The translations under genes and the position numbers were made by a program. The notes below the pieces were generated by a model that had not been told where the DNA came from, did not search any database, and saw nothing but the letters and a program-made list of their open reading frames with translations. From Candidatus Binatia bacterium (lineage in GTDB: Bacteria > Desulfobacterota > Binatia > Bin18), in the NCBI GenBank assembly GCA_963666315.2, contig CAXXHG010000035.1, positions 11,800 through 75,799 on the forward strand: a stretch of DNA of 64,000 nucleotides, read 5' to 3'. Shown here one piece after another: positions 20,598 to 48,566 of the stretch (position 1 is the first letter of the stretch; every line of letters begins with the position of its first letter).

Positions 20598-21101
20598 TTA
20601 CGCTTTCTTGAACTCCATAAATTCTAAGACTGTGCCGTCCGGATCGGTGCAGCAGAAAAACGTTTGCCTTGTGCCACCCAAGCCGGTTTCGTGCGGTTCG
20701 GTGAATGGCTCGACCCCGCGGGTCTTCAGTTCTTTATACGCCTGCCAGGCATCTTTGACTTTGAAACAAATGCGGGCAATACCGAGATGGGCGAGGTGGG
20801 GATAAGGTTGGCCTTCGGCTTTGGGGTCGATCCACTCAATCAAGTCGAGCCGAGTCGCGCGTGGGTCATCGCCAAGGACGAGCAGCCGCGCCCGCCCACG
20901 ACTCTCTTCGGGCAGACCCAGGGCTGGGCCCAAGCCCGGCTCAACCGGCGCCTTTTTTTCGTCGATCTTTTTGGTTGCCAGTGCATTCGTCTTTTTATTG
21001 AAATCCAGCAGCTCCTTAAACCCGATCGCTTTGTAAAATTCCAGCGACCGGTCCAGATTTGAGCAGTTCACATTGATGTGAAAGATTTGCAGATTTTCCA
21101 T
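20598..21101 (-). CDS. VOC (glyoxalase-like) family protein
   Basis: FHINVNCSNLDRSLEFY and DPDGTVLEF motifs. Confidence 0.88.
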   Translation of the reverse strand: MENLQIFHINVNCSNLDRSLEFYKAIGFKELLDFNKKTNALATKKIDEKKAPVEPGLGPALGLPEESRGRARLLVLGDDPRATRLDLIEWIDPKAEGQPYPHLAHLGIARICFKVKDAWQAYKELKTRGVEPFTEPHETGLGGTRQTFFCCTDPDGTVLEFMEFKKA

Positions 21102-21232
21102 TACGAGGCCCTCCTGTGTTGTTTTTCTTATCTGCCACACCGTCGTCAACACTGTGCTGTCAAACTGAAGCGCGTCACACATATTGCCTTACGTGTCACT
21201 AGGGTTCATTTTGTAACAAAGGGGGACTAACA

Positions 21233-21856
21233 ATGAGCGATCTGACATTACCAAAAGATAAAACCGCCATCCTGGTGATGGACTGCCAAAACGATATTGT
21301 GCATGAAGACGGCAAAGTCGGCGGTCACCTGACCGACGGAGCCATGCCGAGGTTGATCAAAGAAAAGAATATCCTCGGCACGATCAGTAAGCTGGCCGCC
21401 GTGGGCAGAGCGGCCAAGGTGCCGATCATTCATGTGCGGCATGCGTATCGGCCGGATTACGCCGACCTGCCGGAAAACTTCAAGATTTTTCGAAGCATGA
21501 AACAGATGCAGGCCCTGCAAGATGGTACATGGGGCGCTGAGATCCATGCCGACGTCAGTCTTGAGCCGCAAGATATCGTTCTTACCAAAACGCGCGTCAG
21601 TTCTTTTTATGCGAGTCCGCTGGAAGGCATCCTCAACGCCCAGGGCCTCACCCACCTGGTGCTGACTGGAATTGCAACCGATGGCGTGGTTGAGGGAACG
21701 GCGCGCGATGGCGCCGACCGGGGCTATACCATCATTATTCCCGACGACTGCTGTGCCGCTACGACCGAAGAGGCCCATCGGGTGATTTTGGGCGGCATTC
21801 TCGCCGCCCTGACTACGGTGTGTACGGCTGATGATGTGATCCAGGCGTTAGGGTAG
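21233..21856 (+). CDS. Isochorismatase/cysteine hydrolase family protein
   Basis: ILVMDCQND, K.RVSSF and GIATDGVVEGTARD motifs. Confidence 0.88.
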   Translation: MSDLTLPKDKTAILVMDCQNDIVHEDGKVGGHLTDGAMPRLIKEKNILGTISKLAAVGRAAKVPIIHVRHAYRPDYADLPENFKIFRSMKQMQALQDGTWGAEIHADVSLEPQDIVLTKTRVSSFYASPLEGILNAQGLTHLVLTGIATDGVVEGTARDGADRGYTIIIPDDCCAATTEEAHRVILGGILAALTTVCTADDVIQALG

Positions 21857-21903
21857 GAGCGCAACGATAGGGCGAGGGAACCTCGTCCCTACAGCACGCG
21901 TTG

Positions 21904-22326
21904 CTACAGCTCGGGGGGGGCCAGGATCGTCAAGCCAAAGAACGACTCGTTGCCCGTACGCAGTGAGTGCGGGGCGCCGGCCGGAATCATGAGCACGTCG
22001 CCTACTTTGAGATCCTGCTCTTTGCCGGACACTTTGGCTGTCGCGCACCCCTCAACGACATAAATAATCTGGTCGCCCTTGTGGGTGTTCTCTGTGTCGT
22101 TGCTATAGCCTGCCGGCAGGGTGAATGCGACTGTCTGGCTCATAGGGGTTTCTTGCAACTTGGCCACCGGGCTGCCTCGATGCTCAAAGACGTTGGCAAC
22201 ATCAAGCCCGCCTGCCGCACCGTTTGCCCCAAGTTCTTGCATCTGTTCTGCAAACAGTGCATCTGAGATCAGCCCCTGCCGATACGCCTTAAGGATTTGT
22301 TTCACTTCAAAATCTTTGTGCGCCAT
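21904..22326 (-). CDS. Cupin domain protein
   Basis: HKGDQIIYVVEG and GDVLMIPAGAPH motifs. Confidence 0.85.
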   Translation of the reverse strand: MAHKDFEVKQILKAYRQGLISDALFAEQMQELGANGAAGGLDVANVFEHRGSPVAKLQETPMSQTVAFTLPAGYSNDTENTHKGDQIIYVVEGCATAKVSGKEQDLKVGDVLMIPAGAPHSLRTGNESFFGLTILAPPEL

Positions 22327-22465
22327 ACTGTTACTCCCTTCTTTAATGAGTTTTCGATACGCGTGCCTTTGGCCATAGCGCTGGGCTGTACGGAAAGCAA
22401 GACGTTGGCGATATTAATCGGAAGTGTTGCAGGTGGCAGGACCGGCGCGTATGCTCTGGCCCTGC

Positions 22466-23407
22466 ATGCAATACACCACCCTAGGACGGACTGGTCTCAA
22501 GGTCAGTGTCGCTGGCCTTGGTTGCGGCGGCCACAGCCGGTTGGGGCAGAGAACCGGAAAAACTGAGCAAGAATCTATTGGAATCGTCCACCAGGCGTTA
22601 GATCTTGGTGTTAATCTCATTGATACTGCCGAGGCATATAAAACCGAAAAGATCGTAGGCAAGGCCATTCAAAGCATCCGGCGCGATCAGATTGTCATCT
22701 CAACAAAAAAACTGTGTTCGTCGTCCGATAGTAAGAATCCAAGCGGTGAACTCCGGCGTGGAGTTGAACAAAGCCTCAAGCGGCTGCAGACCGACTACGT
22801 AGATGTCTTCTATCTCCACGGCGTGCGGCCCGAGCAATACCAGTATGCACGCGACACGCTTGCGCCGGTGCTGGTGCAGCTGCGTGAGGAGGGGAAGATC
22901 CGCTTCATCGGTGTGACCGAGGCCTTTATTCCCGATCCGCAACACGCCATGCTCAAACAGGCTCTGGAGGATGACTGTTGGGATGTGATGATGGTCGGGT
23001 TTAATCTGCTCAATCAATCCGCACGCCAGCGCGTATTTCCAAAAACCCAAGAAAAAAATATCGGCATCATGGATATGTTTGCGGTGCGTAATGCGCTCAG
23101 TCGGCCGGATCACCTTCAAAAGCTCTTGACCGAGTTAAGAGACAATAAACAGATCAATCCAACGCTGTGTGACAGGAAAGAGCTTCTTGGCTTTCTGACC
23201 GAAAACGTAAAAGCCGAGACGATTCCTGAAGCCGCCTATCGGTACTGTCGGCATGAACCGGGGATCGATACGGTCTTGATCGGAACCGGCAACGTCGGTC
23301 ATCTCAAGGAGAATGTTGCTGCTCTCCTGAAGGAGCCTTTGGTGCAGCAAGATAGGCAGCGGCTGGGAGAGATGTTTGGGCAGGTGGATTCGGTGTCGGG
23401 GAATTAG
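22466..23407 (+). CDS. Aldo/keto reductase
   Basis: LGRTGLKVS..GLG, IDTAEAY and SLKRLQTDYVD motifs. Confidence 0.92.
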   Translation: MQYTTLGRTGLKVSVAGLGCGGHSRLGQRTGKTEQESIGIVHQALDLGVNLIDTAEAYKTEKIVGKAIQSIRRDQIVISTKKLCSSSDSKNPSGELRRGVEQSLKRLQTDYVDVFYLHGVRPEQYQYARDTLAPVLVQLREEGKIRFIGVTEAFIPDPQHAMLKQALEDDCWDVMMVGFNLLNQSARQRVFPKTQEKNIGIMDMFAVRNALSRPDHLQKLLTELRDNKQINPTLCDRKELLGFLTENVKAETIPEAAYRYCRHEPGIDTVLIGTGNVGHLKENVAALLKEPLVQQDRQRLGEMFGQVDSVSGN

Positions 23408-23526
23408 TTTTGTTGTGGTGTGTCTAGGGCGAAACGTACGTCTAGGTGAAAAACAGGCCATGCTAACAAGTAGTGTATGCCTAGCCCCTCCTCGGAGGGG
23501 AAGGTAGACCGTAAAAGGAGACTCCT

Positions 23527-25269
23527 ATGGGCGAACCAACTTTCGTTGTCGAAAAAGACGTAGCCGTTCCCATGCGAGACGGCGTTGTTCTACGGGCTGA
23601 TGTATTTCGCCCTGCGGGAGCAGGCTCGTATCCGGTCATCCTGCAGCGGACTCCGTATAATAAGAGCCTCACCATGATTTCCATGCTCATGCTTGATGTC
23701 ATGCGTACAGCCAGTGAGGGCTACGTTGTCGTTATTCAAGACTCGCGTGGTCGATACGCCTCGGACGGAGAGTTTTACGCCTTTCGAGATGACATTGCGG
23801 ATGGTTATGACACGGTGGAGTGGTGTGCGGTGCAGCCGTGGTCAGACGGCAATGTCGGCATGTATGGCGCGTCTTATGTTGGCGCTACACAGTGGTTGGC
23901 CGCCATAAGCAAACCGCCCCATCTCAAGGCTATTTTCCCACTGATTACGGCCTCCGATTATCACGAGGGCTGGACGTATCAGGGCGGAGCCTTTGCGCTT
24001 GGTTTTAACGCAAGCTGGACCATGACCGGCCTGGCGCCGGATACGGCCATGCGCCTTGCCAAACAAAATCCCGAACTACGAGACGACGCGGGACAACTGC
24101 TGACCGGGATTGACGATATGTGTGATGTCTTTCGTCATCTCCCGCTGAAAGATTTTCCGTTCTTCAGTAAGTCTGCGCCGTACTTCTACGACTGGGTGGC
24201 GCATCCGGACGATGACGACTACTGGGCACGGCTCAATATTGAAAACCGGCATGATTCGATTACCGTCCCGGCTTGCAATGTCGGTGGCTGGTACGACATT
24301 TTTTTGGGCGGTACGATTCGTAATTATGTGGGTATGCAAGAACGAGCGGCCACCCCAGAGGCTCGCAGCGGTCAGAAACTCGTCATAGGTCCGTGGCACC
24401 ATACACTGCCTCTCAGCAATATCGTGGGCGAGGCGAATTTCGGGCTAGCGAGTACACCCCTGGCTGCAGATCTGGATGGCCTGCACATTAAATGGTTTGA
24501 CTACTGGCTCAAAGGCAAACGGAACGGTCTGTTAGAAGAACCGCCCGTCCGCATTTTTGTGATGGGCAAGAATGTATGGCGGAATGAAAACGAATGGCCG
24601 CTGGCTCGGACCCAGTACACAACGTACTACTTGCATAGTGACGGAAAAGCGAACAGCCTGCGTGGTGATGGAATACTGAGTCCTGAGGTCCCGCGTAGCA
24701 AACTTGCCGATGCGTATGTGTCTGACCCGCGTAATCCCGTTCCAACCAAGGGCGGAGGGTTGTGCTGCTGGCCCGCGGCTGTACCAGGCGGCGCGTTCGA
24801 TCAACGATCCGTAGAAGAACGGGAAGACGTCCTGGTATACACTACCCCGGTATTGGAACAGGATGTCGAGGTCACCGGACCGATAACGGTTACGCTGTAC
24901 GCGGCAACCAGCGCGGTCGATACCGACTTTACGGCTAAGCTGGTAGATGTCCATCCAGCAGGGTACGCACGTAATCTGACTGACGGTATCATTCGTGGTC
25001 GCTATCGTGCATCAAAAGTAAAAGCAACGCTGCTCAAACCGGATGAGGTTTACGAGTTTACGATAGACCTGTGGGCGACCAGCAATGTCTTCAAAGCCGG
25101 GCACCGTATTCGTCTCGACATCGCCAGCTCAAACTTCCCACGTTTTGACCGCAATCCGCAAACGGGTGAGGCAAGTGGCGAGGCAAGCATACTGGAGCCC
25201 GCCCTACAGCACGTCTTTCATGACGAAGCGCATCCTTCTCACGTGGTGTTGCCGATTATTCCGAAGTGA
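23527..25269 (+). CDS. CocE/NonD family hydrolase
   Basis: MRDGVVL.AD, RTPY, GASYVG nucleophile, GWYD and IGPWHH motifs. Confidence 0.93.
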   Translation: MGEPTFVVEKDVAVPMRDGVVLRADVFRPAGAGSYPVILQRTPYNKSLTMISMLMLDVMRTASEGYVVVIQDSRGRYASDGEFYAFRDDIADGYDTVEWCAVQPWSDGNVGMYGASYVGATQWLAAISKPPHLKAIFPLITASDYHEGWTYQGGAFALGFNASWTMTGLAPDTAMRLAKQNPELRDDAGQLLTGIDDMCDVFRHLPLKDFPFFSKSAPYFYDWVAHPDDDDYWARLNIENRHDSITVPACNVGGWYDIFLGGTIRNYVGMQERAATPEARSGQKLVIGPWHHTLPLSNIVGEANFGLASTPLAADLDGLHIKWFDYWLKGKRNGLLEEPPVRIFVMGKNVWRNENEWPLARTQYTTYYLHSDGKANSLRGDGILSPEVPRSKLADAYVSDPRNPVPTKGGGLCCWPAAVPGGAFDQRSVEEREDVLVYTTPVLEQDVEVTGPITVTLYAATSAVDTDFTAKLVDVHPAGYARNLTDGIIRGRYRASKVKATLLKPDEVYEFTIDLWATSNVFKAGHRIRLDIASSNFPRFDRNPQTGEASGEASILEPALQHVFHDEAHPSHVVLPIIPK

Positions 25270-39916: not shown

Positions 39917-42211
39917 CTACGACCGGCCTGATCCATTTGTCCCTGAGCCGTTCGTTCCATTGGGGCCGTTCCCGTGTATGGCCCAGAAGACGCGTTCGGG
40001 ATTCATGGGCAATTCATACAGCCGTTTGCCTGTGGCGCGGTAAATTGCATTTGCCAGGGCTGCGCCCGGTGGCACTATGGGTACTTCGCCTACGCCGCGC
40101 AGTCCATACGGACCTTCTGAGGCTGGGACTTCGGTGAGTACAGTCTCAATCATGGGCAGGTCGAGGGCAACCGGACAGCGATAGTCGAGCAGGCTTGCGT
40201 TTTTCAGCTCGCCGTTGTCAAAGATATACTCTTCATTCAGCGCCCAGCCGATGCCCTGCACAGCTCCACCCTGGATCTGGCCTTCAACCTGCATTGGATT
40301 GATCGCTTTGCCGACATCTTGGAAGCAGGTGTAGCGCAGAATTGTCGCCTTGCCCGTATCTGGGTCGATCTCAACATCAGCCACATGGGCGGCATAGGAG
40401 TGGGCCGGCTGCATGCGGGTTGTGCTGCCCTTACCGATGATCGGCCCGCTGCCCCAGGCCACACTCTCGCGCGCCAGGTCTGCCAGGCTGACCTCGTTCT
40501 GCGTGTCGTCTTTGGCCCAGAAACGCTTTTGTTTATATTCAACGTCGTCTACCGAGACCTTGAGCTTTTCGGCGGCGCGTACGCGCAGCTGGGATAAAAC
40601 GTCGTGGCTGGCCTGATGCGCCGCAGCGCTCATGGTGTAAGTAATCCGGCTGCCGCCGCTCAGATCGGCAAAGGGGGCGGTGTCGGTATCGCCCACGGTG
40701 ATGGTGATCTCTGTCGGATCAAGCTGCAGTTCGTCCGCCACCATTTGTAAAATAGTGGTCCGAGTGCCGGTCAGATCAACCGTGCCGACAAAGATAGAAG
40801 CAGTAGCATCTGGATTGATTTTGATTTCAGCACTCGAGGTAAATGAACCACCGATCCAGTAACCCAAGGCTAAGCCACGACCACGATTGGCGCCTTCTAG
40901 CGGCGTCGTCCAGCACGAATGCTTTTGAATCTCCCCCAACATCTCGGTCAGACCGATGCGGTTGAGCGGCATGCCGAGCGGCAGTGTATCGCCTTCCTCA
41001 GCTGCATTTTTCTGACGAAACTCCAGGGGATCTACACCGATCTCCTCAGCCAGCGCATCCATGAGGGATTCAACCGCAAAAGCCGCCGGCGTTCCACCAG
41101 GAGCTCGGTAGGCCTGGACCCGAGGCTTGTTGGTCAGGACGTCAAACCCTTCGGCTAGCATATTGTCCAATTTGTACGGAGCTAAGCCCACGAGCAGTCC
41201 GCGGGAGACTGGCGAGCCGGGGAAGGCTCCCGCATCATAGCGCATGGTCGTTGAAATCGCGGTGAGTTTGCCGTCTTTTTTTGCCCCGGCTTTGACCGTA
41301 ATGACCGCAGGGGCACCCGGACCCGTTGCACGCAGGACTTCCTCGCGAGAGACGACCAATTTGACCGGGCGGCTGGTCTTCTGGGCCAGGACGATGGCCG
41401 TGGGTTCAAACAGTGCCAGCGCTTTGCCGCCAAATCCGCCGCCGATCTCCATGGGGATAACGTTGAGCTGGTTCGCCGGTAAGCCCAGCAGGGTGACAAG
41501 CTGGGTCCGCACGGTGAAATGCCCCTGAGCCGAGGTCCACAACGTCACCTTGCCACTCGGTTCGACCCGCGCGGCACAGGCTTGGGGTTCCAGATACCCC
41601 TGATGGACCATCTGGGTCGTATACGTTTTCTCGATGAGTACGTCGGCTTCTTTAAACCCAGCCTCCACATCGCCCCGGGTATAGACCATATGCGTGGCAA
41701 TATTGCTGGGCTGGTCAGATTTTTCTTGGGTGGCCTCTTCGAGCGTGTGCAGATCTTCGTGAACCAGAGCGGTACCAGGTTGCATGGCCTGTAGCACGTC
41801 TTCCACGACAGGCAGGACTTCGACCAGCCCGGCTGCTTCCTCGGCAATAAAGGGATCAGTCGCAGCCACAGCGGCCACGACCTGACCATGATAGCGCGCT
41901 TTATCTGAGGCCATGACAATTTCTCGGATGGCGCTCATGTCTATGCTGACTTCGCCGACCAGTGGCGCAGTCGCGCCTTTTGGCAGGTGAGGCAGGTCGT
42001 TGGCGGTAATAACGGCCTTCACGCCGGGCAGGGCTTTCGCTTTGCTGGTATCAATCTTCTTGATGCGCGCGTGTGCATACGGGCTACGGACTAATTTGGC
42101 CCACAGCATACCGGGCAGATCGAGGTCTGCCCCATAGACCGCTTTGCCCGTGACCCGTTCCGGGGCATCAACCTTGGCTAGAGACGTTCCGATCACACTA
42201 TACTCAGCCAT
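39917..42211 (-). CDS. Xanthine dehydrogenase family molybdopterin-binding subunit
   Basis: HQGYLEP, IGGGFGGK, AYRAPG, GQIQGG and RGVGEVP motifs. Confidence 0.93.
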   Translation of the reverse strand: MAEYSVIGTSLAKVDAPERVTGKAVYGADLDLPGMLWAKLVRSPYAHARIKKIDTSKAKALPGVKAVITANDLPHLPKGATAPLVGEVSIDMSAIREIVMASDKARYHGQVVAAVAATDPFIAEEAAGLVEVLPVVEDVLQAMQPGTALVHEDLHTLEEATQEKSDQPSNIATHMVYTRGDVEAGFKEADVLIEKTYTTQMVHQGYLEPQACAARVEPSGKVTLWTSAQGHFTVRTQLVTLLGLPANQLNVIPMEIGGGFGGKALALFEPTAIVLAQKTSRPVKLVVSREEVLRATGPGAPAVITVKAGAKKDGKLTAISTTMRYDAGAFPGSPVSRGLLVGLAPYKLDNMLAEGFDVLTNKPRVQAYRAPGGTPAAFAVESLMDALAEEIGVDPLEFRQKNAAEEGDTLPLGMPLNRIGLTEMLGEIQKHSCWTTPLEGANRGRGLALGYWIGGSFTSSAEIKINPDATASIFVGTVDLTGTRTTILQMVADELQLDPTEITITVGDTDTAPFADLSGGSRITYTMSAAAHQASHDVLSQLRVRAAEKLKVSVDDVEYKQKRFWAKDDTQNEVSLADLARESVAWGSGPIIGKGSTTRMQPAHSYAAHVADVEIDPDTGKATILRYTCFQDVGKAINPMQVEGQIQGGAVQGIGWALNEEYIFDNGELKNASLLDYRCPVALDLPMIETVLTEVPASEGPYGLRGVGEVPIVPPGAALANAIYRATGKRLYELPMNPERVFWAIHGNGPNGTNGSGTNGSGRS

Positions 42212-42222
42212 GCTGTCCCTCC

Positions 42223-42699
42223 TTATGCATGCTGCGACAGCGCCTGTGACGCGGCCTGAATCGAACGGACAATTTTGTCATAGCCTGTGCAGCGGCACAG
42301 GTTGCCAGAAATCGCTAAACGAATCTCTTGTTCACTCGGGTTTGGGTTCCGTTCCAATAATGCCTTGGCCGACATAATGAAGCCCGGAGTGCAGAAGCCA
42401 CACTGTAAGCCGCCGTGTTCAATAAACGCTTGCTGTACGGGGTGGAGATTGCCCTCGGCCGCCACGCCTTCGACCGTTGTGACGTCTGCGCCTGCGGCTT
42501 CCACTGCGAACACGAGACAGGCATTGACGACGGAGCCGTTCAGGACGACCGTGCAGGCTCCGCAGTTGCCGTTTCCACAGCCTTCCTTCGGGCCCATGAA
42601 ACCCAGCTTGTAGCGGAGGGTATCGAGCAGCGTTGTGCGTGTATCTACAATGGTGGTGTGCGGCTCGCCGTTTATGTTCATTTCGATAGGCTGTTTCAT
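42223..42699 (-). CDS. (2Fe-2S)-binding small subunit (CoxS/CutS family)
   Basis: GCGNGNCGAC, QCGFCTPG and NLCRCTGY motifs. Confidence 0.94.
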   Translation of the reverse strand: MKQPIEMNINGEPHTTIVDTRTTLLDTLRYKLGFMGPKEGCGNGNCGACTVVLNGSVVNACLVFAVEAAGADVTTVEGVAAEGNLHPVQQAFIEHGGLQCGFCTPGFIMSAKALLERNPNPSEQEIRLAISGNLCRCTGYDKIVRSIQAASQALSQHA

Positions 42700-42704
42700 A
42701 CTGT

Positions 42705-43574
42705 TTACCCCCTCGTCCTTTCCAGCGCCCTTGTCAGCGTTCTGCGCGTCAGGACCTTCACCAATTCAATCCGATACGTGGCTGAACCACGCACATCAGA
42801 GATCGGGCTGGCGGCCTGAGCGGCGAGTTCGCCGGCCTGTGCAATAGTCGTTACATCCAATGTTTTGCCTGCTAAAAATGCCTCCGCCTCTTTTGCCCGG
42901 AGAGGAGTAGGGGCAACTGCGGCTAGTGTGATACGAGCCTGCTCACAGGTTTGCTTGTCTGGGCTGAGCTGGACAAACGAGCCTACTCCAGCAACTGCGA
43001 TGTCCATCTCTTCGCGGGGAATGAACCGCAGATAGGCTGCGCCGGAGTTTGGTGGGGGAACAGGCAGAATAATCTCAACCAGGATCTCTCCTTTTTCGAG
43101 CACGGTCTGTCCCGGTCCAGTAAAAAGATATTCCGCAGGCAGCTCGCGTCGTCCGTTTGGTCCTTCGAGCAGCAGCGCTGCGCCGTACGACAGTGCGGGC
43201 GGGACGGCGTCAGCCGACGGAGCCGCATTACAAAAATTGCCGCCCAGCCCAGCGCGGTTCTGTATTTGATACGAACCGACTAAGGCGCAGGCTTCGGCCA
43301 AGGCAGGGTAGTGGTCGCTGGCCGGATCGAAGCTGGCGATCTTGGTGCACGAGACGGCCGCTCCAATATGGAGTCCGGAGCCGGTGTAGGACAGAACGTT
43401 TAATTCAGAAATTCTTTTGATATCAACGACCAGGGAAAGGCTGCGGCGGTTTTCTTTCATCTGGGTGACGAGATCCGTTCCGCCTGCGAGTGGGCGGGCC
43501 TCGCCATTCGCCTCAGACAGCAAAGCCACGGCTTCTTGTAAACTTTGGGGAGCCGCGTAGTCAAATGCGTGCAC
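42705..43574 (-). CDS. FAD-binding medium subunit (CoxM/CutM family)
   Basis: LAGGTDL, QIQNRAGLGGN and PISDVRGS motifs. Confidence 0.93.
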   Translation of the reverse strand: MHAFDYAAPQSLQEAVALLSEANGEARPLAGGTDLVTQMKENRRSLSLVVDIKRISELNVLSYTGSGLHIGAAVSCTKIASFDPASDHYPALAEACALVGSYQIQNRAGLGGNFCNAAPSADAVPPALSYGAALLLEGPNGRRELPAEYLFTGPGQTVLEKGEILVEIILPVPPPNSGAAYLRFIPREEMDIAVAGVGSFVQLSPDKQTCEQARITLAAVAPTPLRAKEAEAFLAGKTLDVTTIAQAGELAAQAASPISDVRGSATYRIELVKVLTRRTLTRALERTRG

Positions 43575-43758: not shown

Positions 43759-44544
43759 TTGGCAAACCGGACTGAACATAAGATTACCGTAGCCGAATCT
43801 GAATTGACGCTCATTAAGGCAGGTTCGGGTAAACCGCTGTTAATGCTGCATGATGAGCTCGGATTTCCGGGCTGGCTGAAATGGAATGACGAGCTCGCCG
43901 CGGACCGTGGATTTGTGATTCCGCTGCAGCCGGGTTTCGATAAAACACCCCGCATAGACTGGATTCGCAGTTTCCGTGACTTGGCCAGCTTTTATAGTAT
44001 GGCGGTCCGAGAAATGGGTCTCGGCCCTGTGGATGTGATTGCTTTCTCGGCTGGTGGATATATTGCCGCCGAGATGATCGCGTCTGACCCCCATATATTT
44101 AGCCATATGATTCTTGTGGGTCCTATGGGCATCAAGCCGGAAAAAGGGGAGATCTTTGACATCTTCCCGGTGACGATTCGCACCCATCTGCGAGCAACCG
44201 TAGCAGATCCGAGCAATCCCGAGTTTGGCACTATCTACGGCGGAGAGATGACGCCGGAGCAGTTCGAGGCGTTTGAAGACGCACGGGCCGAGAGCGCGCG
44301 GATCGGTTGGGAGCCGTATATGCACAATCCCAGCTTGCCGCATTTGCTGCGTGGAGTGAAAAACGTAACAACGCTGCTGATCCGAGGCGCTCAAGATAAG
44401 ATCGTCCCGCAAGGCTGCATTGATGCCTACCAACAGGCTATTGATGGAGCCCGGACAGCGCAGATTACCGATGCCGGCCACCGTCCGGAAGTAGAAAACT
44501 CGGCTGAGTTCGTGAAAATCGTCACAGAGTTCCTGGCATCCTAG
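43759..44544 (+). CDS. Alpha/beta hydrolase
   Basis: AFSAGG nucleophile elbow, GAQDKIVP and AGHRP; GGAGG RBS before TTG. Confidence 0.85.
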   Translation: MANRTEHKITVAESELTLIKAGSGKPLLMLHDELGFPGWLKWNDELAADRGFVIPLQPGFDKTPRIDWIRSFRDLASFYSMAVREMGLGPVDVIAFSAGGYIAAEMIASDPHIFSHMILVGPMGIKPEKGEIFDIFPVTIRTHLRATVADPSNPEFGTIYGGEMTPEQFEAFEDARAESARIGWEPYMHNPSLPHLLRGVKNVTTLLIRGAQDKIVPQGCIDAYQQAIDGARTAQITDAGHRPEVENSAEFVKIVTEFLAS

Positions 44545-44566: not shown

Positions 44567-45895
44567 ATGCAATTTTCATATTTTACGGAACGCCCTTACC
44601 GTGGGGTGGATGAAGACGCAGTCCTCAAAAATAGAGCCTTCTTTGCCCTCCCTAACGAACAGTTCGATCGTGAGATAGCAGCGAACGATTTCAACTATTA
44701 TCTGGACGAAAACTGCTATGCGGAAGAACTTGGCTTTGATGCGGTTGCGCTCAATGAGCATCACGGCAACCCGTTCTGTATGGGCAGTGTCATGAACGTT
44801 GAGGCGGCGATTCTGGCCCGGATTACAAACAGGGTCAAAATCGTCCTGATCGGCAACCCTCTGCCCGTCCTGAAACATCCGCTTCGGATGGCAGAAGAAC
44901 TCGCTGAGATTGATCTGATCTCGCGCGGACGTTTGGTCACTGGTTGGGTGCGCGGTGCCGGCAGTGAACAGTTCTTTAATAACGCCAACCCAGCTTATAA
45001 CCGTGAGTTGTTCAACGAAGCCCACGATTTTATTATTCAAGCCTGGACCAAGCCTGGGCCGTGGCGTTACGAGGGAAAACATTTCCACTACCGGCATGTG
45101 AACCCTTGGGTGTTGCCGTACCAGAAGCCGTATCCGCAAATGTGGATTCCGGGCGTGTTGAGCCCTGAAACCGTACGCTGGTGTGCACAGCACAAATACC
45201 CCTATATCGGTCTTGGGACTGCGTTGGGGCCAACCTGCGAGCTGTGGAATGTGTATGCCGATGAAGCGGCTAAACTAGGATACCAAGCGGGTCCGGAGAA
45301 TTTTGGTTATCTGATTCCAACCTTTCTGGCTGAAACAGATGCAAAGGCCCAGGAAGTGGGGAAGAATTTTATCTTTGGCGGTGGGCAAAATGCCTTCTCG
45401 CGGCCTGAACACACCCTGCCGCCGGGGTATAATTCTAAAAGCGCGATTCGTATGCTGGCCAAGCATCCGGGCGGGAGTTGGTTGGGCGTAAGCCCCGAGA
45501 AGCTGCGGCAGCAGCAGGAGGACCAACCCGAGGAAGTCGATTATGATGAGGTCCGCCAAAAGTTGCTCAAGGGATATGAAAAGACCCAGCGCAACCACCA
45601 GCTCATCATTGGCTCGCCCAAAACGGTGCTTCCCAAACTCAAGGTCCTGCTGCGCATCCTGCGACCTGGCATCTTCACTTTCTTCAACATCCAGGGCAAG
45701 GTGAGTAATGAAGACCGGATGACGAGCATGCGGCTCATTGCTGAAGAAGTCATGCCTGATCTCCGCGAGTATGCCAACGAGTTGGGCCTCAAGGACCCGT
45801 TCGAGCGTACGCCCGGCTCAGTCCCGTATCGGAATGGCGTGGCGCGCGATCCTGTGATAGACCGCGGACCTTTGGACGAGTTGGGCCTTAAATAG
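44567..45895 (+). CDS. LLM class flavin-dependent oxidoreductase
   Basis: AEELGFD..LNEHH and AEELA.IDLISRGRL..G.VRG motifs. Confidence 0.9.
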   Translation: MQFSYFTERPYRGVDEDAVLKNRAFFALPNEQFDREIAANDFNYYLDENCYAEELGFDAVALNEHHGNPFCMGSVMNVEAAILARITNRVKIVLIGNPLPVLKHPLRMAEELAEIDLISRGRLVTGWVRGAGSEQFFNNANPAYNRELFNEAHDFIIQAWTKPGPWRYEGKHFHYRHVNPWVLPYQKPYPQMWIPGVLSPETVRWCAQHKYPYIGLGTALGPTCELWNVYADEAAKLGYQAGPENFGYLIPTFLAETDAKAQEVGKNFIFGGGQNAFSRPEHTLPPGYNSKSAIRMLAKHPGGSWLGVSPEKLRQQQEDQPEEVDYDEVRQKLLKGYEKTQRNHQLIIGSPKTVLPKLKVLLRILRPGIFTFFNIQGKVSNEDRMTSMRLIAEEVMPDLREYANELGLKDPFERTPGSVPYRNGVARDPVIDRGPLDELGLK

Positions 45896-45928
45896 GGTCA
45901 TCTAAACTTGCATAACTGGCTGTTTCTG

Positions 45929-45958
45929 AGGGGCGGGTTTTAAACCCGTCCTTTTTTT
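45929..45958 (+). terminator. Intrinsic terminator
   Basis: GGGCGGGTTT-T-AAACCCGTCC stem followed by a T7 run. Confidence 0.7.
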
Positions 45959-46023: not shown

Positions 46024-47070
46024 ATGAGCGACCAGCACGACGAGAAACAACTCCGGCATGACTCTGAGTCCTTCCCGCAACGAACACTCACGTCTGCCCA
46101 GAACCGGGAACGGGAGATCCGGGTCAAGGCAATTGAGGCATTGTTAGTCGAAAGAGAGCTGGTTTCCGACGAATTGCTCGATTCCGTGCTGGACTCGTAT
46201 GAGAACGATATCGGTCCACTGAATGGCTACCGAGTCGTTGCCCGCGCGTGGGTCGACCCTGCGTATAAAGAACGCCTTCTTGAGAATGGAACGGCCGCCA
46301 TCGCAGAGCTTGGTTTTGGCGGCTTGCAAGGCGAACGCCTTGTTGTTGTAGAGAATACCCCAGAGACGCACAATGTCATCGTGTGCGCCTTGTGCTCGTG
46401 TTACCCCTGGCCTGTCCTGGGCCTGCCGCCATTTTGGTATAAGAGTCGATCGTACCGATCGAGAGTGGCGGGCAAGCCGCGCGAGGTGCTCCACGAGTTT
46501 GGTCTCGATCTGGATGAAGAGGTGCAGATTCAGGTCTGGAATAGCAACTTCCAGACCCGCTATATGGTTCTGCCTGAACGACCGCAGGGTTCGGAACAGC
46601 TGACAGAAGAGGAACTCGCGGCCATAGTCACGCGGGACGCCATGATCGGCGTGGCTAAAGTCGAGCGTAAGAAAAAACAGCAGCCCGGTCTCTCCCAACG
46701 ACAAGTATCCGACATGCAAGGCACCGCCGCCCTACCGCGGAAAAGTGGAGAACTCCAGTTCCAAGATCCCTGGGAAGGTGAGGCGTTTGCCATGGCTGTC
46801 GCCCTGTGTGAGCGTAGGCACTATCAGTGGCAAGAATTTCAGGAGCACTTGATTGCTGAGATTGCGAGAGCAGATCAAACAGCGCCTGATGTGAGATCGA
46901 CGTATTATGAAAGCTGGCTCGCGGCATTTGAAAAGCTGCTCGATACGAAAAACATTCTGGCCCAAACAACGCTCAATCGACGCGTCCGACAAATACAGCG
47001 CGGCATTTCTATGCGCCGCACTCGCCTGCCATTTGGCATCGCCATGTGGGAAGACGATGAGGATGAGTGA
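46024..47070 (+). CDS. nthA: Nitrile hydratase alpha subunit fused to a nitrile hydratase accessory (P14K-like) domain
   Basis: [37 protein letters not shown] and RYMVLPERP, then in frame [23 protein letters not shown] and [13 protein letters not shown]. Confidence 0.88.
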
Positions 47071-47265: not shown

Positions 47266-47731
47266 ATGAAACATCGCTTCATCCATATCTGTCTTGCTGG
47301 TCTGCTTGTCTTTCCTTGTCTGACCTGGGGCTACGGAGTTCCGCCAATACCCCCGCCAGAAAATCCCCAGAGCCCGGGTGCCCTGGAGGTCCCACTGGCC
47401 AACGCACTCCGTTCAGAGCGGGATAGGCTATGTCTCTGGCTGGTATTGTGACTTGCTAGCAACAGACACGCTGACCGTCCTCTTTAACGGTGGCGAGCCT
47501 AATACCGTGCTGTATGGCGCGAGCCGTAACGATACAGTTGCGGTTTGCGGCGATGCCGACAACGGTTACGTCATGCCGCTGAACTGGAATGATTTGGGGG
47601 ATGGTCTGCACCTGGTCGAAGTCTTTGCCGGAGACGCCCTCATTGCGAGTGCCGGGGTGTGGGTCAAGACCTTTGGGACAGCGTTTCACACCGGCGCTGC
47701 GGCGACCGTCGTGATTCAGGATTTTCTCCCA
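47266..47731 (+). pseudogene. Exported hypothetical protein, frameshifted and truncated
   Basis: Signal peptide; SGIGYVSGWYCD and YGASRNDT..VCGDADNG..NWN.LGDG.H continue in a second frame. Confidence 0.55.
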
Positions 47732-47812
47732 GGAAGACCGGAAGAGCAGCTCGTATCGATACACTTGCTGGTGTTGATCTAAAATTGGTTGACGAGCAAC
47801 GAAGGTCTCCAT
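47732..47812 (-). pseudogene. 5' stub of an EAL/HDOD-type protein
   Basis: METFVARQPILDQHQQVYRYELLFRS; only about 27 codons remain. Confidence 0.7.
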
Positions 47813-47915: not shown

Positions 47916-48566
47916 TTAGCCCGTCCGAAGCTCGACCTCAAAACACGTCCCGCCGCCTTCGCGCGGCACACAGCGGACATCGCAGCCGTGACGGCGAGCG
48001 ATTTGGTGTACGAGCGCCAGCCCAAGACCAACGCCGTCGTCACTGCTCTCGCGCATTCCAGGCAGACGATAGAACGGCTCGAAGATGCGTTCTCGCTCCT
48101 GCTCCGGAATGCCGGGGCCCCGATCTGCAACCCGCAGCCGAGCGCCCGTATTGAATGGAGCAACGGTCGCCTCAATAGGCGAGTCGGCCGCATAGCGCTG
48201 GGCATTTTCGAGCAAATTGCGCATTAATCTGCGCAACATATGCGGATCGCCGTGAATGCAGACGGACTCCCCGCCGACCTCTGCCTGGGTTCGTGTCGCT
48301 TCTTCCGCCAGCAGAGCGAGCAGATCCACTGCTTGTGGGTGCTCAATGCTGTCGAGGGTATCCAGGCGGCTGGCTAAAAGAATTTCGCCGATCAATTCGT
48401 CCAGCTCGGTGATATCTTGCGCAATCTGGGTGTGTAACTCTGGCCGCTCTGTACTCGGCAAGAGCTCAACCGCCATGCGTATGCGTGCCAGCGGGGAGCG
48501 GAGTTCATGCGAGGCTCCGCTGAACATCGTGCGCTGCGCAGTGACCAGACGCTCGATGCGAGCGGC
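47916..48566 (-). pseudogene. Sensor histidine kinase, 5'-truncated
   Basis: SHELRSPLAR, NLLENA, DRGPGI and GLGLAL boxes; no sensor or TM part. Confidence 0.85.

Follow-up and report, generated by a model that had tools for sequence, protein, structure and literature searches.

Can the alpha subunit of a nitrile hydratase (NHase) that carries its own maturation protein on the same polypeptide chain do without a beta subunit? NHases are major industrial biocatalysts (acrylamide, nicotinamide), in which the insertion of cobalt and the oxidation of cysteines are still poorly understood, and the question is raised by a single gene in a stretch of 64,000 nucleotides of DNA from Candidatus Binatia bacterium (GenBank assembly GCA_963666315.2, contig CAXXHG010000035.1, positions 11,800 to 75,799), which is referred to as the window throughout. 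As judged from its sequence, this gene (window 46024-47070, plus strand) encodes an NHase alpha subunit of the cobalt type (Co-type) that is naturally fused, in one chain, to its own activator of the P14K/NhlE class. Besides Candidatus Binatia, a small number of further uncultured lineages have such fusions. What we regard as new are the single origin of this fusion, the changes in the second shell of its metal site, the state of the column that corresponds to beta-Arg52 in its activator domain, the analysis of selection and the counts of co-occurrence with other NHase genes.

Domain organization of the fusion protein

The gene consists of a single uninterrupted open reading frame (ORF) of 348 amino acids (aa) plus stop, with no in-frame stop codon, and its ATG at 46024 matches the N-terminus of the family (M1 in at least 90% of 112 sequences). 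Residues 30-211 are matched by Pfam NHase_alpha (PF02979) over profile positions 3-184 of 184 (E 8e-84; 280.1 bits versus a cut-off of 27.2), and the NCBIfam model nitrile_alph (TIGR01323) is passed with 279.4 bits at a curated cut-off of 249.85. The second part of the protein is matched by Pfam NHase_beta_N (residues 229-324, E 1e-11) and passes the accessory-protein model nitrile_acc (TIGR03889) with 73.5 bits at a cut-off of 46, residues 246-316 covering profile positions 1-72 of 74. Because TIGR03889 is passed and the beta-subunit model TIGR03888 is failed (37.7 bits versus 152.2), we class the fused piece, on its profile scores, as a P14K/NhlE-class activator rather than half a beta subunit; PF02211, the SH3-like C-terminal domain that accompanies PF21006 in beta subunits, has no match within the fusion ORF. 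The model for the gamma subunit of thiocyanate hydrolase (SCNase), TIGR03887, scores 185.9 bits and thus stays below its cut-off of 291.45, and in a sequence search of the PDB Co-type alpha chains matched down to E 1e-80 and SCNase gamma chains at E 1e-44 to 1e-46. A match to the NHLP leader-peptide model for precursors of ribosomally synthesized and post-translationally modified peptides (TIGR03793; 58.9 bits versus 50.9, residues 141-201) was rejected, since the alpha domain is full-length with its metal motif intact; the score is attributed to the homology of this leader with alpha.

Thus, Pfam and NCBIfam agree with a first-pass annotation made from the DNA letters alone, which had described one unbroken ORF with a complete NHase alpha subunit, a linker and a P14K/NhlE-like domain. 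Its smaller observations were found again as well: a variant CALCSC site followed by the Tyr of Co-type enzymes (CALCSCY, residues 121-127), an Arg-rich stretch and an acidic tail with the motif WEDDEDE, a terminator upstream (a hairpin with a T-run; table 1) and the lack of a ribosome-binding site for a separate second gene. Concerning the latter, inspection by eye revealed no purine run of Shine-Dalgarno type ahead of the internal Met231, and Met231 itself is conserved within the domain (20/20 fusions and 89% of 56 beta subunits have M).

A structure predicted by AlphaFold2 from an alignment of 112 sequences (pLDDT 71.6, pTM 0.56) is confident for the alpha core, for four helices of the activator domain and for a tail helix at residues 314-334 (mean pLDDT of 94 for residues 311-320 and 83 for residues 321-330), with pLDDT falling below 50 at residues 1-18, 130-140 and 219-243. 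When this model was compared with the PDB by Foldseek, Co- and Fe-type alpha chains matched with TM scores of 0.69-0.75 (by target), and only alpha chains were found at E up to 0.001; the second domain matched beta chains weakly (E ~0.2). No PDB chain covering both fusion domains was returned by Foldseek, and no solved structure with an activator chain was found either there or in the PDB sequence search, which gave alpha and SCNase gamma chains only.

Conservation, selection and origin

A trivial explanation of the single frame would be a frameshift or an assembly error that joined adjacent alpha and activator genes, or else a gene in decay. Canonical alpha and activator genes overlap by 4 bases, so that a small indel could fuse them, the linker of the window copy includes a run of six A (A6), and relatives do contain broken copies, which lie in pieces in two genomes (G017:C1:729257-730331 and G019:C1:3385916-3386679) and are frameshifted on a closed chromosome in a third (L028, 6001-6908). 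Against such an explanation, a search for full-length homologues of the same architecture, as proposed in the first-pass annotation, found both Pfam domains in 120/120 listed homologues (61-100% identity including the query, 331-427 aa); these are the best 120 of 8000 scored candidates, on which all family counts out of 120 given below also rest. Intact full-length fusions are present in 17 of 24 Candidatus Binatia genomes of the same genus (76-85% identity), single-contig (closed) chromosomes included, and seven more (L020-L026) occur outside the genus in metagenome-assembled genomes (MAGs) labelled Binatia/Binatota, Deltaproteobacteria, Proteobacteria, Methylomirabilota and, in one case, Klebsiella pneumoniae, which we take to be a mislabel. 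The linkers are in frame in 19/19 loci, with length differences that are multiples of three and with different sequences. Also the suspicion of an indel in the linker was not confirmed: contigs from four public runs (four studies) span it with zero indels, two of them being identical to the window across the linker (X1, X2) and two others showing six (X4) and four (X6) substitutions, in a check based on assembled contigs rather than raw reads in which one run may equal the source sample.

Purifying selection acts on every segment of the fusion. In nine same-genus copies, median pairwise dN/dS is 0.20 for residues 1-29, 0.08 for alpha, 0.23 for the linker, 0.16 for the accessory domain and 0.17 for the tail, i.e. 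the strongest constraint within the protein lies on the alpha domain, and constraint on linker, accessory domain and tail, in a family with invariant residues of its own, is hard to reconcile with an accident. Overall, we give an artefact or a dying gene hardly any weight as an explanation, and for the window copy it is excluded. The broken copies in three related genomes nevertheless mean that the fusion gene is dispensable in some lineages; a further copy, in a genome of the same order (G025), is interrupted by one TGA.

In a FastTree phylogeny of alpha cores, which included 131 distinct fusion cores, 73 canonical cores from fetched loci and the canonical alpha encoded elsewhere in the window's genome (on contig C40, see below), all fusion alpha cores form one clade with a support of 0.913, the sole other tip inside being the frameshifted fusion L028. 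Since the fusion alphas form one clade, the fusion arose once. Upon clustering at 50%, the family collapses to one representative (P0066).

Among the best 150 of 4460 matches, only P0122 (45% identity, 351 aa) is otherwise full-length with both halves matched. This protein is very acidic, has a His/Asp-rich N-terminus and keeps CTLCSC, VWDSSSE, Asp164 and Glu168; because it is acid-rich and has kept CTLCSC and VWDSSSE, it is apparently an independent alpha-activator fusion. Three other candidates (P0132, P0177, P0237) look like frameshifted translations and were not counted, and three loci that tblastn had suggested as distant fusions (L027, L045, L073) turned out to be something else (an alpha-beta ORF in L045, separate genes in the other two) and were left out of the counts. 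The L045 ORF (5932-7173, from an Alphaproteobacteria MAG) is a single putative frame of 413 aa with apparently alpha first and then beta, followed by a separate activator gene; this order is the reverse of that in eukaryotic beta-alpha fusions.

Surroundings of the metal site

For comparison with the well-studied enzyme of Pseudomonas putida, residues were renumbered as window residue minus 9, according to an ungapped match to 3qz5_A (query 29-211 on chain 20-202), and this offset reproduces the ligands C112, C115 and C117. The alpha domains of 131 fusions were then set against 73 canonical alphas, a taxonomically narrow set (mostly Acidobacteriaceae and Binatia) that inflates what counts as 'conserved'. 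The first-shell residues C, C, S and C (window Cys121, Cys124, Ser125 and Cys126) are invariant in fusions and canonical alphas alike. Around them, however, the two groups part. At the position of Thr113, fusions have V (51), A (50), T (26) or M (4), whereas canonical alphas have T in 73/73; at that of Asp164, Asn is found in 131/131 fusions and Asp in 73/73 canonical alphas; and at that of Glu168, where canonical alphas are acidic in 69/73 cases (E 55, D 14), the six commonest residues in fusions are Q (67), A (21), E (20), K (11), R (6) and S (4), so that at most about 22 of the 131 are acidic. Position 128 is Phe in every one of the 131 fusions and variable in canonical alphas. The substrate-side residues Tyr127 and Trp129 are kept in 131/131 fusions, as are 58 of the 71 positions that are at least 93% conserved in canonical alphas.

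The changes concern residues with documented functions. The Co-type signature is CTLCSCY and the Fe-type signature CSLCSCT (PMC2667541); the window protein has the Tyr of the former with Ala in place of its Thr, and the sequence alone cannot tell which metal is bound. In P. putida alpha, D164 belongs to the second shell and reaches the ligand Cys112 via a water molecule, and kcat/KM decreases 20-fold in D164N and 3.7-fold in E168Q, according to the portion of PMC4420525 consulted. Because Asn is present in 131/131 fusions while D164N has this 20-fold effect in P. putida, selection has thus fixed in this family a substitution that is harmful to the enzyme with beta. Taken together, the alignments show a second shell that appears to have been re-tuned in the fusion alphas. 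The first-pass annotation had left open whether the protein is a self-chaperoned alpha donor or a single-chain enzyme; on the strength of these family-specific changes around the metal site, a single-chain enzyme is the reading that we favour.

A more radical interpretation of the same residues would be a metal protein that is not a hydratase at all but serves in cobalt storage or sensing, or catalyses a different reaction at the Cys-sulfinate/sulfenate centre. The changes at Thr113, Asp164 and Glu168, the absence of the beta arginines and neighbouring genes that give no nitrile-specific clue would all fit with such a role. The intact first-shell ligands and the retention of most conserved alpha positions speak against it, as does the fact that the equivalog cut-off for NHase alpha is passed, and we consider this interpretation decidedly improbable.

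The fused activator domain and the tail

The fused domain was aligned with homologous domains from fetched loci, which resulted in a comparison of fusion domains (n=20), stand-alone activators (n=48) and N-domains of beta (n=56). The motifs LPR and YYExWL as well as F246, W250, F255 and W269 are common to the fusion domain and the 48 stand-alone accessory proteins. In the column of beta-Arg52, Arg occurs in 56/56 betas, activators have R (23) or A (22) in most of the 48 cases, and the fusions have Q in 19 and R in 1 of 20 (Q 94, R 24 and H 2 in the listed family, n=120); the window protein has Gln273. Because of this Gln, the fused domain does not supply the beta-Arg52 arginine, and the second catalytic Arg belongs to the C-terminal domain of beta, which is absent from the fusion. 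The earlier idea of a single-chain enzyme in which the fused domain provides the arginines of beta is therefore not supported.

Other arginines are nearly invariant in the listed family, i.e. R226 (119/120), R239 (120/120) and R334 (114/120), of which R239 is common to activators generally (45/48) and R334 is family-specific. The acidic end of the tail is a family trait, too, with at least four D/E among the last 12 residues in 101/120 listed homologues.

A relationship between the two domains may be reflected in the residues at alpha-168 and column 273. Alpha-168 is acidic in 15/24 members with Arg at column 273 and in 8/96 members without it, and sixteen members combine Lys or Arg at alpha-168 with Gln273. 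This is a hint—not a statistical test, since the members concerned are clustered on the tree—that alpha-168 and column 273 could be spatial neighbours, as would be expected if the fused domain occupies the place of beta-N.

Location of beta-subunit genes

If the fusion protein worked with a beta subunit, where would the latter come from? The first-pass annotation had noted that neither a beta gene nor an amidase gene is adjacent and had proposed to search the genome for beta or SH3-like subunits. This search yielded exactly one PF02211 match, on contig C40, and none on the window's contig; likewise, the genome has 28 amidase-family matches, all of them on contigs other than the window's. The single beta gene is part of a canonical Co-type NHase operon on the minus strand of C40, which encodes a beta of 219 aa, an alpha with CTLCSCY and an activator of 108 aa, the start of the activator gene being overlapped by the alpha stop by 4 bases. 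In related genomes a beta gene beside the fusion was found in 0/11 same-genus loci (flanks of about 1.5 kb) and in 0/7 loci outside the genus. Elsewhere in the genomes the picture is different: a canonical alpha plus activator is also present in 17/17 same-genus genomes that carry the fusion, and outside the genus 6/7 fusion genomes have at least one match to the C-terminal domain of beta (beta-C), with none found in the seventh (G043), which has a canonical-type alpha and for which the absence of beta has to be read in the light of the completeness of these seven MAGs, which is not given. An even draw of 400 genomes of the phylum contained the fusion in the window's own genome only and is uninformative on its co-occurrence with beta. 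As beta is absent from the fusion loci and yet beta or a canonical alpha is present elsewhere in the genomes, the fusion is always an extra copy in NHase-rich genomes, which is never encoded with beta and never demonstrably alone.

It had also been suggested that the fusion could be part of a split enzyme as in thiocyanate hydrolase. No beta-C or SH3-like gene lies beside any fusion locus, the fusion stays below the SCNase gamma cut-off as mentioned above, and the short beta-C genes that do occur in fusion genomes belong to separate three-subunit operons, so this suggestion is not upheld. In particular, the sole beta-C of G042 is an ORF of 96 aa in a separate operon (beta-N 104 aa, beta-C 96 aa, alpha 220 aa), and the short beta-C ORFs of G042, G044 and G045 were rejected as partners of the fusion because they sit in such beta-N/beta-C/alpha operons with an alpha of their own.

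These three-subunit split-beta operons of NHase type (L099 1317-2608, L100 3745-5025 and L101 3869-5317, with beta-N of about 104 aa, beta-C of about 96 aa and alpha of about 220 aa) are present in three fusion genomes. Moreover, a third group of alpha paralogues (47-54% identity, about 210 aa) occurs in most same-genus genomes and was not found in the window's genome (G000).

The presence of beta genes elsewhere gives rise to the main rival of a beta-free enzyme, i.e. that beta is used in trans. The fusion would then be an alternative alpha isoform that associates with a beta made elsewhere—that of the C40 operon or, in other genomes, split beta halves—and the activator domain would act in maturation only and swing away to leave an (alpha-activator)-beta enzyme with altered properties. 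The co-occurrence with canonical alpha and accessory genes in 17/17 genomes of the genus and with beta-C in 6/7 genomes outside it would provide for such a partnership, an engineered beta-alpha-P14K fusion is active and dimeric (PMC4709657), and the 58 of 71 conserved canonical positions that are kept may be seen in the same light; in addition, both NHase loci of the genome adjoin paralogous monooxygenase/hydrolase pairs, which hints at related roles. However, the canonical operon already has its own alpha and activator, so no spare beta is evident, beta is beside the fusion in 0/18 loci, the terminator-like hairpin upstream of the fusion points to separate regulation, and Asp164, present in 73/73 of the beta-partnered alphas compared, is found in 0/131 fusions. 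With these points on either side, we regard the use of beta in trans as unlikely, but far from negligible.

Possible modes of action

How could the fusion protein work without beta? The tethered activator domain would stay on alpha, so that the maturation complex of alpha and activator would be made permanent by a covalent link; in this state the domain would help cobalt insertion and the oxidation of two cysteine ligands. Rather than being handed over to a beta subunit, alpha would remain where it is, with the product acting as a beta-free hydratase. The surroundings of the metal would have been re-tuned (Thr to Ala, Asp164 to Asn, Glu168 to mostly non-acidic residues) with the first-shell ligands kept, and acidic second-shell residues may have been lost since two beta arginines no longer need balancing, a loss that is to be expected if both these arginines are absent. 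That the fusion is a beta-free, self-maturing hydratase appears plausible, if just short of probable, because of three observations: ToyJ, the alpha of toyocamycin nitrile hydratase, is catalytic and fully modified alone (PMC7329996 and PMC11672702, in the portions consulted), fusion and canonical genes are in separate transcription units, and the loss of acidic residues parallels the absence of the beta arginines. We put forward with a little more reserve that the family constitutes a new class of minimal beta-free NHase-type metalloenzymes, in which the activator has replaced beta as the second domain and the site has been re-balanced for the missing arginines.

Several points weigh against a beta-free enzyme. 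In every fusion genome checked, NHase beta genes or a canonical-type alpha gene are found at another place. Full activity (452.5 U/mg, 0.82 Co) was obtained with an engineered single chain of beta, alpha and P14K (PMC4709657), and therefore an activator tethered to the C-terminus of alpha is no obstacle to cooperation with beta. With Asn fixed at the Asp164 position, the protein could be a weak nitrile hydratase or have another role altogether, and the consulted portion of PMC4420525 gives the water contact of D164 to Cys112 without stating a pairing with a beta arginine. Finally, the AlphaFold2 model is only moderate and of low confidence in the invariant LPRxSGEL stretch and in a further loop, which leaves the position of the activator domain on alpha uncertain.

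Another alternative would be a dedicated maturation device, i.e. a cobalt-loaded alpha-activator protein that donates cobalt or alpha to the apo-enzymes of other NHase systems and thus represents a covalent form of the alpha(P14K)2 or alpha-e2 mediators rather than an enzyme in its own right. Holo alpha(P14K)2 does activate apo-NHases, subunit-fused ones included, by cobalt transfer (PMC4709657 and a 2020 review, as far as the consulted portions go), the fusion co-occurs with other NHase systems, and the reduced catalysis that Asn at the Asp164 position causes in P. putida would be less of a handicap for a donor. But canonical operons keep their own activator genes, which makes a second donor seem redundant, and a tethered alpha cannot swap without carrying the activator along. 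Moreover, the alpha domain is the most constrained part of the protein (dN/dS 0.08), including the substrate-side Tyr127 and Trp129, and in other lineages its neighbours, a transporter gene and a hydrolase gene, give its operons a catabolic appearance. A donor function is therefore improbable.

For a beta-free enzyme, the consequences would be considerable. The fusion may represent an enzyme of industrial importance in a minimal form that matures itself; if active without beta, it would be a one-gene, self-maturing NHase of use for engineering, and if the beta-free class is real, its substrate or chemistry may differ from those of classical NHases. It would also represent the maturation complex of alpha and activator in a natural and stable form, and as a covalent 1:1 alpha-activator protein under selection it could be suited for determining the alpha-activator interface. 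In addition, the family is a natural experiment on residues that have been mutated in the laboratory, i.e. Thr109 (PDB 1ugr is a T109S mutant), Asp164 and Glu168.

Gene neighbourhood

The features of the fusion gene and its immediate upstream region are summarized in table 1. The order in the window is alpha/beta-hydrolase, luciferase-like monooxygenase, terminator-like hairpin and fusion, and the monooxygenase gene is directly upstream of the fusion in 11/11 same-genus loci (L008-L018).

Table 1. Predicted features of the fusion gene and its upstream region (positions in the window).
Feature	Position	Strand	Evidence or remark
alpha/beta-hydrolase gene, upstream of monooxygenase	43759-44544	+	Pfam
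luciferase-like monooxygenase, 442 aa, upstream of fusion	44567-45895	+	Pfam PF00296
terminator-like hairpin and T-run, between monooxygenase gene and fusion	45928-45954	+	12 pairs, 6 of them G-C, then TTTTGTTGTG
fusion gene: NHase alpha, linker, activator domain, charged tail	46024-47070	+	ORF, profile matches, homologues
N-terminal extension, residues 1-29, His and acidic residues	46024-46110	+	family consensus His-rich; predicted to be disordered (residues 1-18 with pLDDT <50)
Co-type NHase alpha domain, residues 30-214	46111-46665	+	Pfam, TIGR01323, PDB, Foldseek (TM 0.72-0.75 to alpha chains)
metal-ligand motif C-A-L-C-S-C, residues 121-126	46384-46401	+	three Cys and Ser kept; Ala for Thr
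Asn173, equivalent of P. putida alpha-Asp164, second shell of axial Cys ligand	46540-46542	+	alignment
Gln177, equivalent of P. putida alpha-Glu168	46552-46554	+	alignment
linker, residues 215-235, ending in conserved R-x-x-x-D-M-x-G	46666-46728	+	family alignment
accessory (P14K/NhlE-class) domain, residues 236-316, homologue of beta N-terminal domain; Gln273 at beta-Arg52 column	46729-46971	+	TIGR03889
tail, residues 317-348, Arg-rich predicted helix, then acidic end	46972-47067	+	AlphaFold2 helix 314-334; family counts

Paralogues of both upstream genes (monooxygenase 45-46% identity, hydrolase 34-35%) follow the canonical NHase operon in 12/14 loci (L030-L043) as well as on C40. In the latter case (C40:17425-23773; L005 = 20611-23907), the monooxygenase (45%) and hydrolase (35%) paralogues lie about 2.6 kb after the operon, with an intervening ORF for a low-complexity protein of more than 377 aa. 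Since hydrolase-monooxygenase pairs recur about nine times in the genome (C1, C2, C8, C15, C17, C22, C35, possibly C38, and C40), the link of both NHase loci to such pairs is suggestive only; the luciferase-like monooxygenase family as a whole is strongly expanded, with dozens of tblastn matches in this genome.

In two loci outside the genus (L021 and L022), the fusion overlaps an upstream gene for a haloalkane-dehalogenase-like alpha/beta hydrolase, which in turn follows an MFS transporter gene, and a NIPSNAP gene downstream of the fusion overlaps it in L022 and is 45 bases away in L021. The two loci (L021 788-7460, L022 813-7391) share the order rhodanese, GFA, two unknown ORFs, MFS transporter, alpha/beta hydrolase, fusion and NIPSNAP. 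Rhodanese makes thiocyanate from cyanide, with uncertain relevance to these loci. No nitrile-specific partner was seen among the fusion neighbourhoods, and the Pfam and NCBIfam names for the monooxygenase and the hydrolases are generic. With a monooxygenase, a hydrolase and elsewhere an MFS transporter as neighbours, the gene context would fit a catabolic route in which the substrate is a small compound that bears a nitrile, or a related one.

Further genes in the surroundings of this block are recorded here as observations in their own right. Divergent from the hydrolase-monooxygenase-fusion block are genes for a molybdoenzyme of the xanthine-dehydrogenase/CO-dehydrogenase family (39917-43574, minus strand), with a large subunit of 764 aa, a 2Fe-2S subunit of 158 aa and an FAD subunit of 289 aa. 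Downstream of the fusion, an ORF of 134 aa (47378-47782, plus strand) has no Pfam or NCBIfam match and at least eight paralogues in the genome (36-44% identity), and an ORF of 203 aa (47916-48527, minus strand) comprises HisKA and HATPase_c only, with no sensor or transmembrane part, and may be truncated or mis-started. Near-identical partial matches (0.2-0.55 of sampled words) occur mainly in runs labelled as marine sediment, marine and seawater metagenomes; the X4 and X6 contigs are 90-99% alike.

Comparison with known systems

No natural alpha-activator fusion was found described in the full-text literature searched (subscription papers and supplements excepted), in which only engineered fusions and natural beta-alpha fusions appear. 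This agrees with the earlier statement that natural NHase fusions are of the beta-alpha kind, since the 2020 review, in the portion consulted, lists no other. The motifs CALCSC, CVLCSC and CMLCSC gave matches in literature text only to unrelated words such as 'calcschist'.

The eukaryotic beta-alpha enzymes of Monosiga brevicollis and others are natural single-polypeptide NHases. These join a catalytic beta to a following alpha, and no activator is known for them from the sources consulted, whereas in the family described here alpha is combined with an activator and beta is missing. In thiocyanate hydrolase of Thiobacillus thioparus, the gamma subunit is a homologue of NHase alpha and beta is split into two proteins; the fusion differs in its TIGR03887 score and in having no adjacent genes for beta-N or beta-C partners. 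ToyJ, again as far as the consulted sources go, sets the precedent for an NHase alpha that is active without beta. It belongs, however, to an enzyme of three subunits in which beta is split, and it carries no fused activator.

The engineered NHase-(BAP14K) of P. putida (Xia et al. 2016, PMC4709657) has its domains connected in the order of the natural fusion, the C-terminus of alpha being joined to the N-terminus of the activator, and the product is cobalt-loaded, Cys-oxidized and active. Yet this protein is man-made, includes beta and has CTLCSC (peptide VCTLCSCYPW...), whereas the natural family is without beta and has a changed second shell.

With respect to its partners, finally, the fusion corresponds to the alpha(P14K)2 complex of P. 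putida NRRL-18668 and the alpha-e2 (NhlA-NhlE) complex of Rhodococcus rhodochrous J1, the mediators of 'self-subunit swapping', in which a Co-type alpha is likewise combined with a small activator, itself a homologue of the N-terminal region of beta. Even the Arg-rich, positively charged tail of the fusion has its counterpart in the C-terminus of P14K, which is described as positively charged in the consulted portion of the 2020 review. Stand-alone activators, however, are separate proteins of about 14 kDa encoded beside alpha and beta, whereas here the activator is fused in frame to alpha; the known complexes consist of separate proteins in a 1:2 ratio and the fusion of one polypeptide with a ratio of 1:1. 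Moreover, according to the sources consulted, alpha(P14K)2 and alpha-e2 are transient intermediates that originate from beta-alpha-activator or alpha-beta-activator operons, whereas the fusion is encoded in a unit without beta, and, unlike the alphas of these known mediators, its alpha has a second shell that differs from that of canonical alphas.

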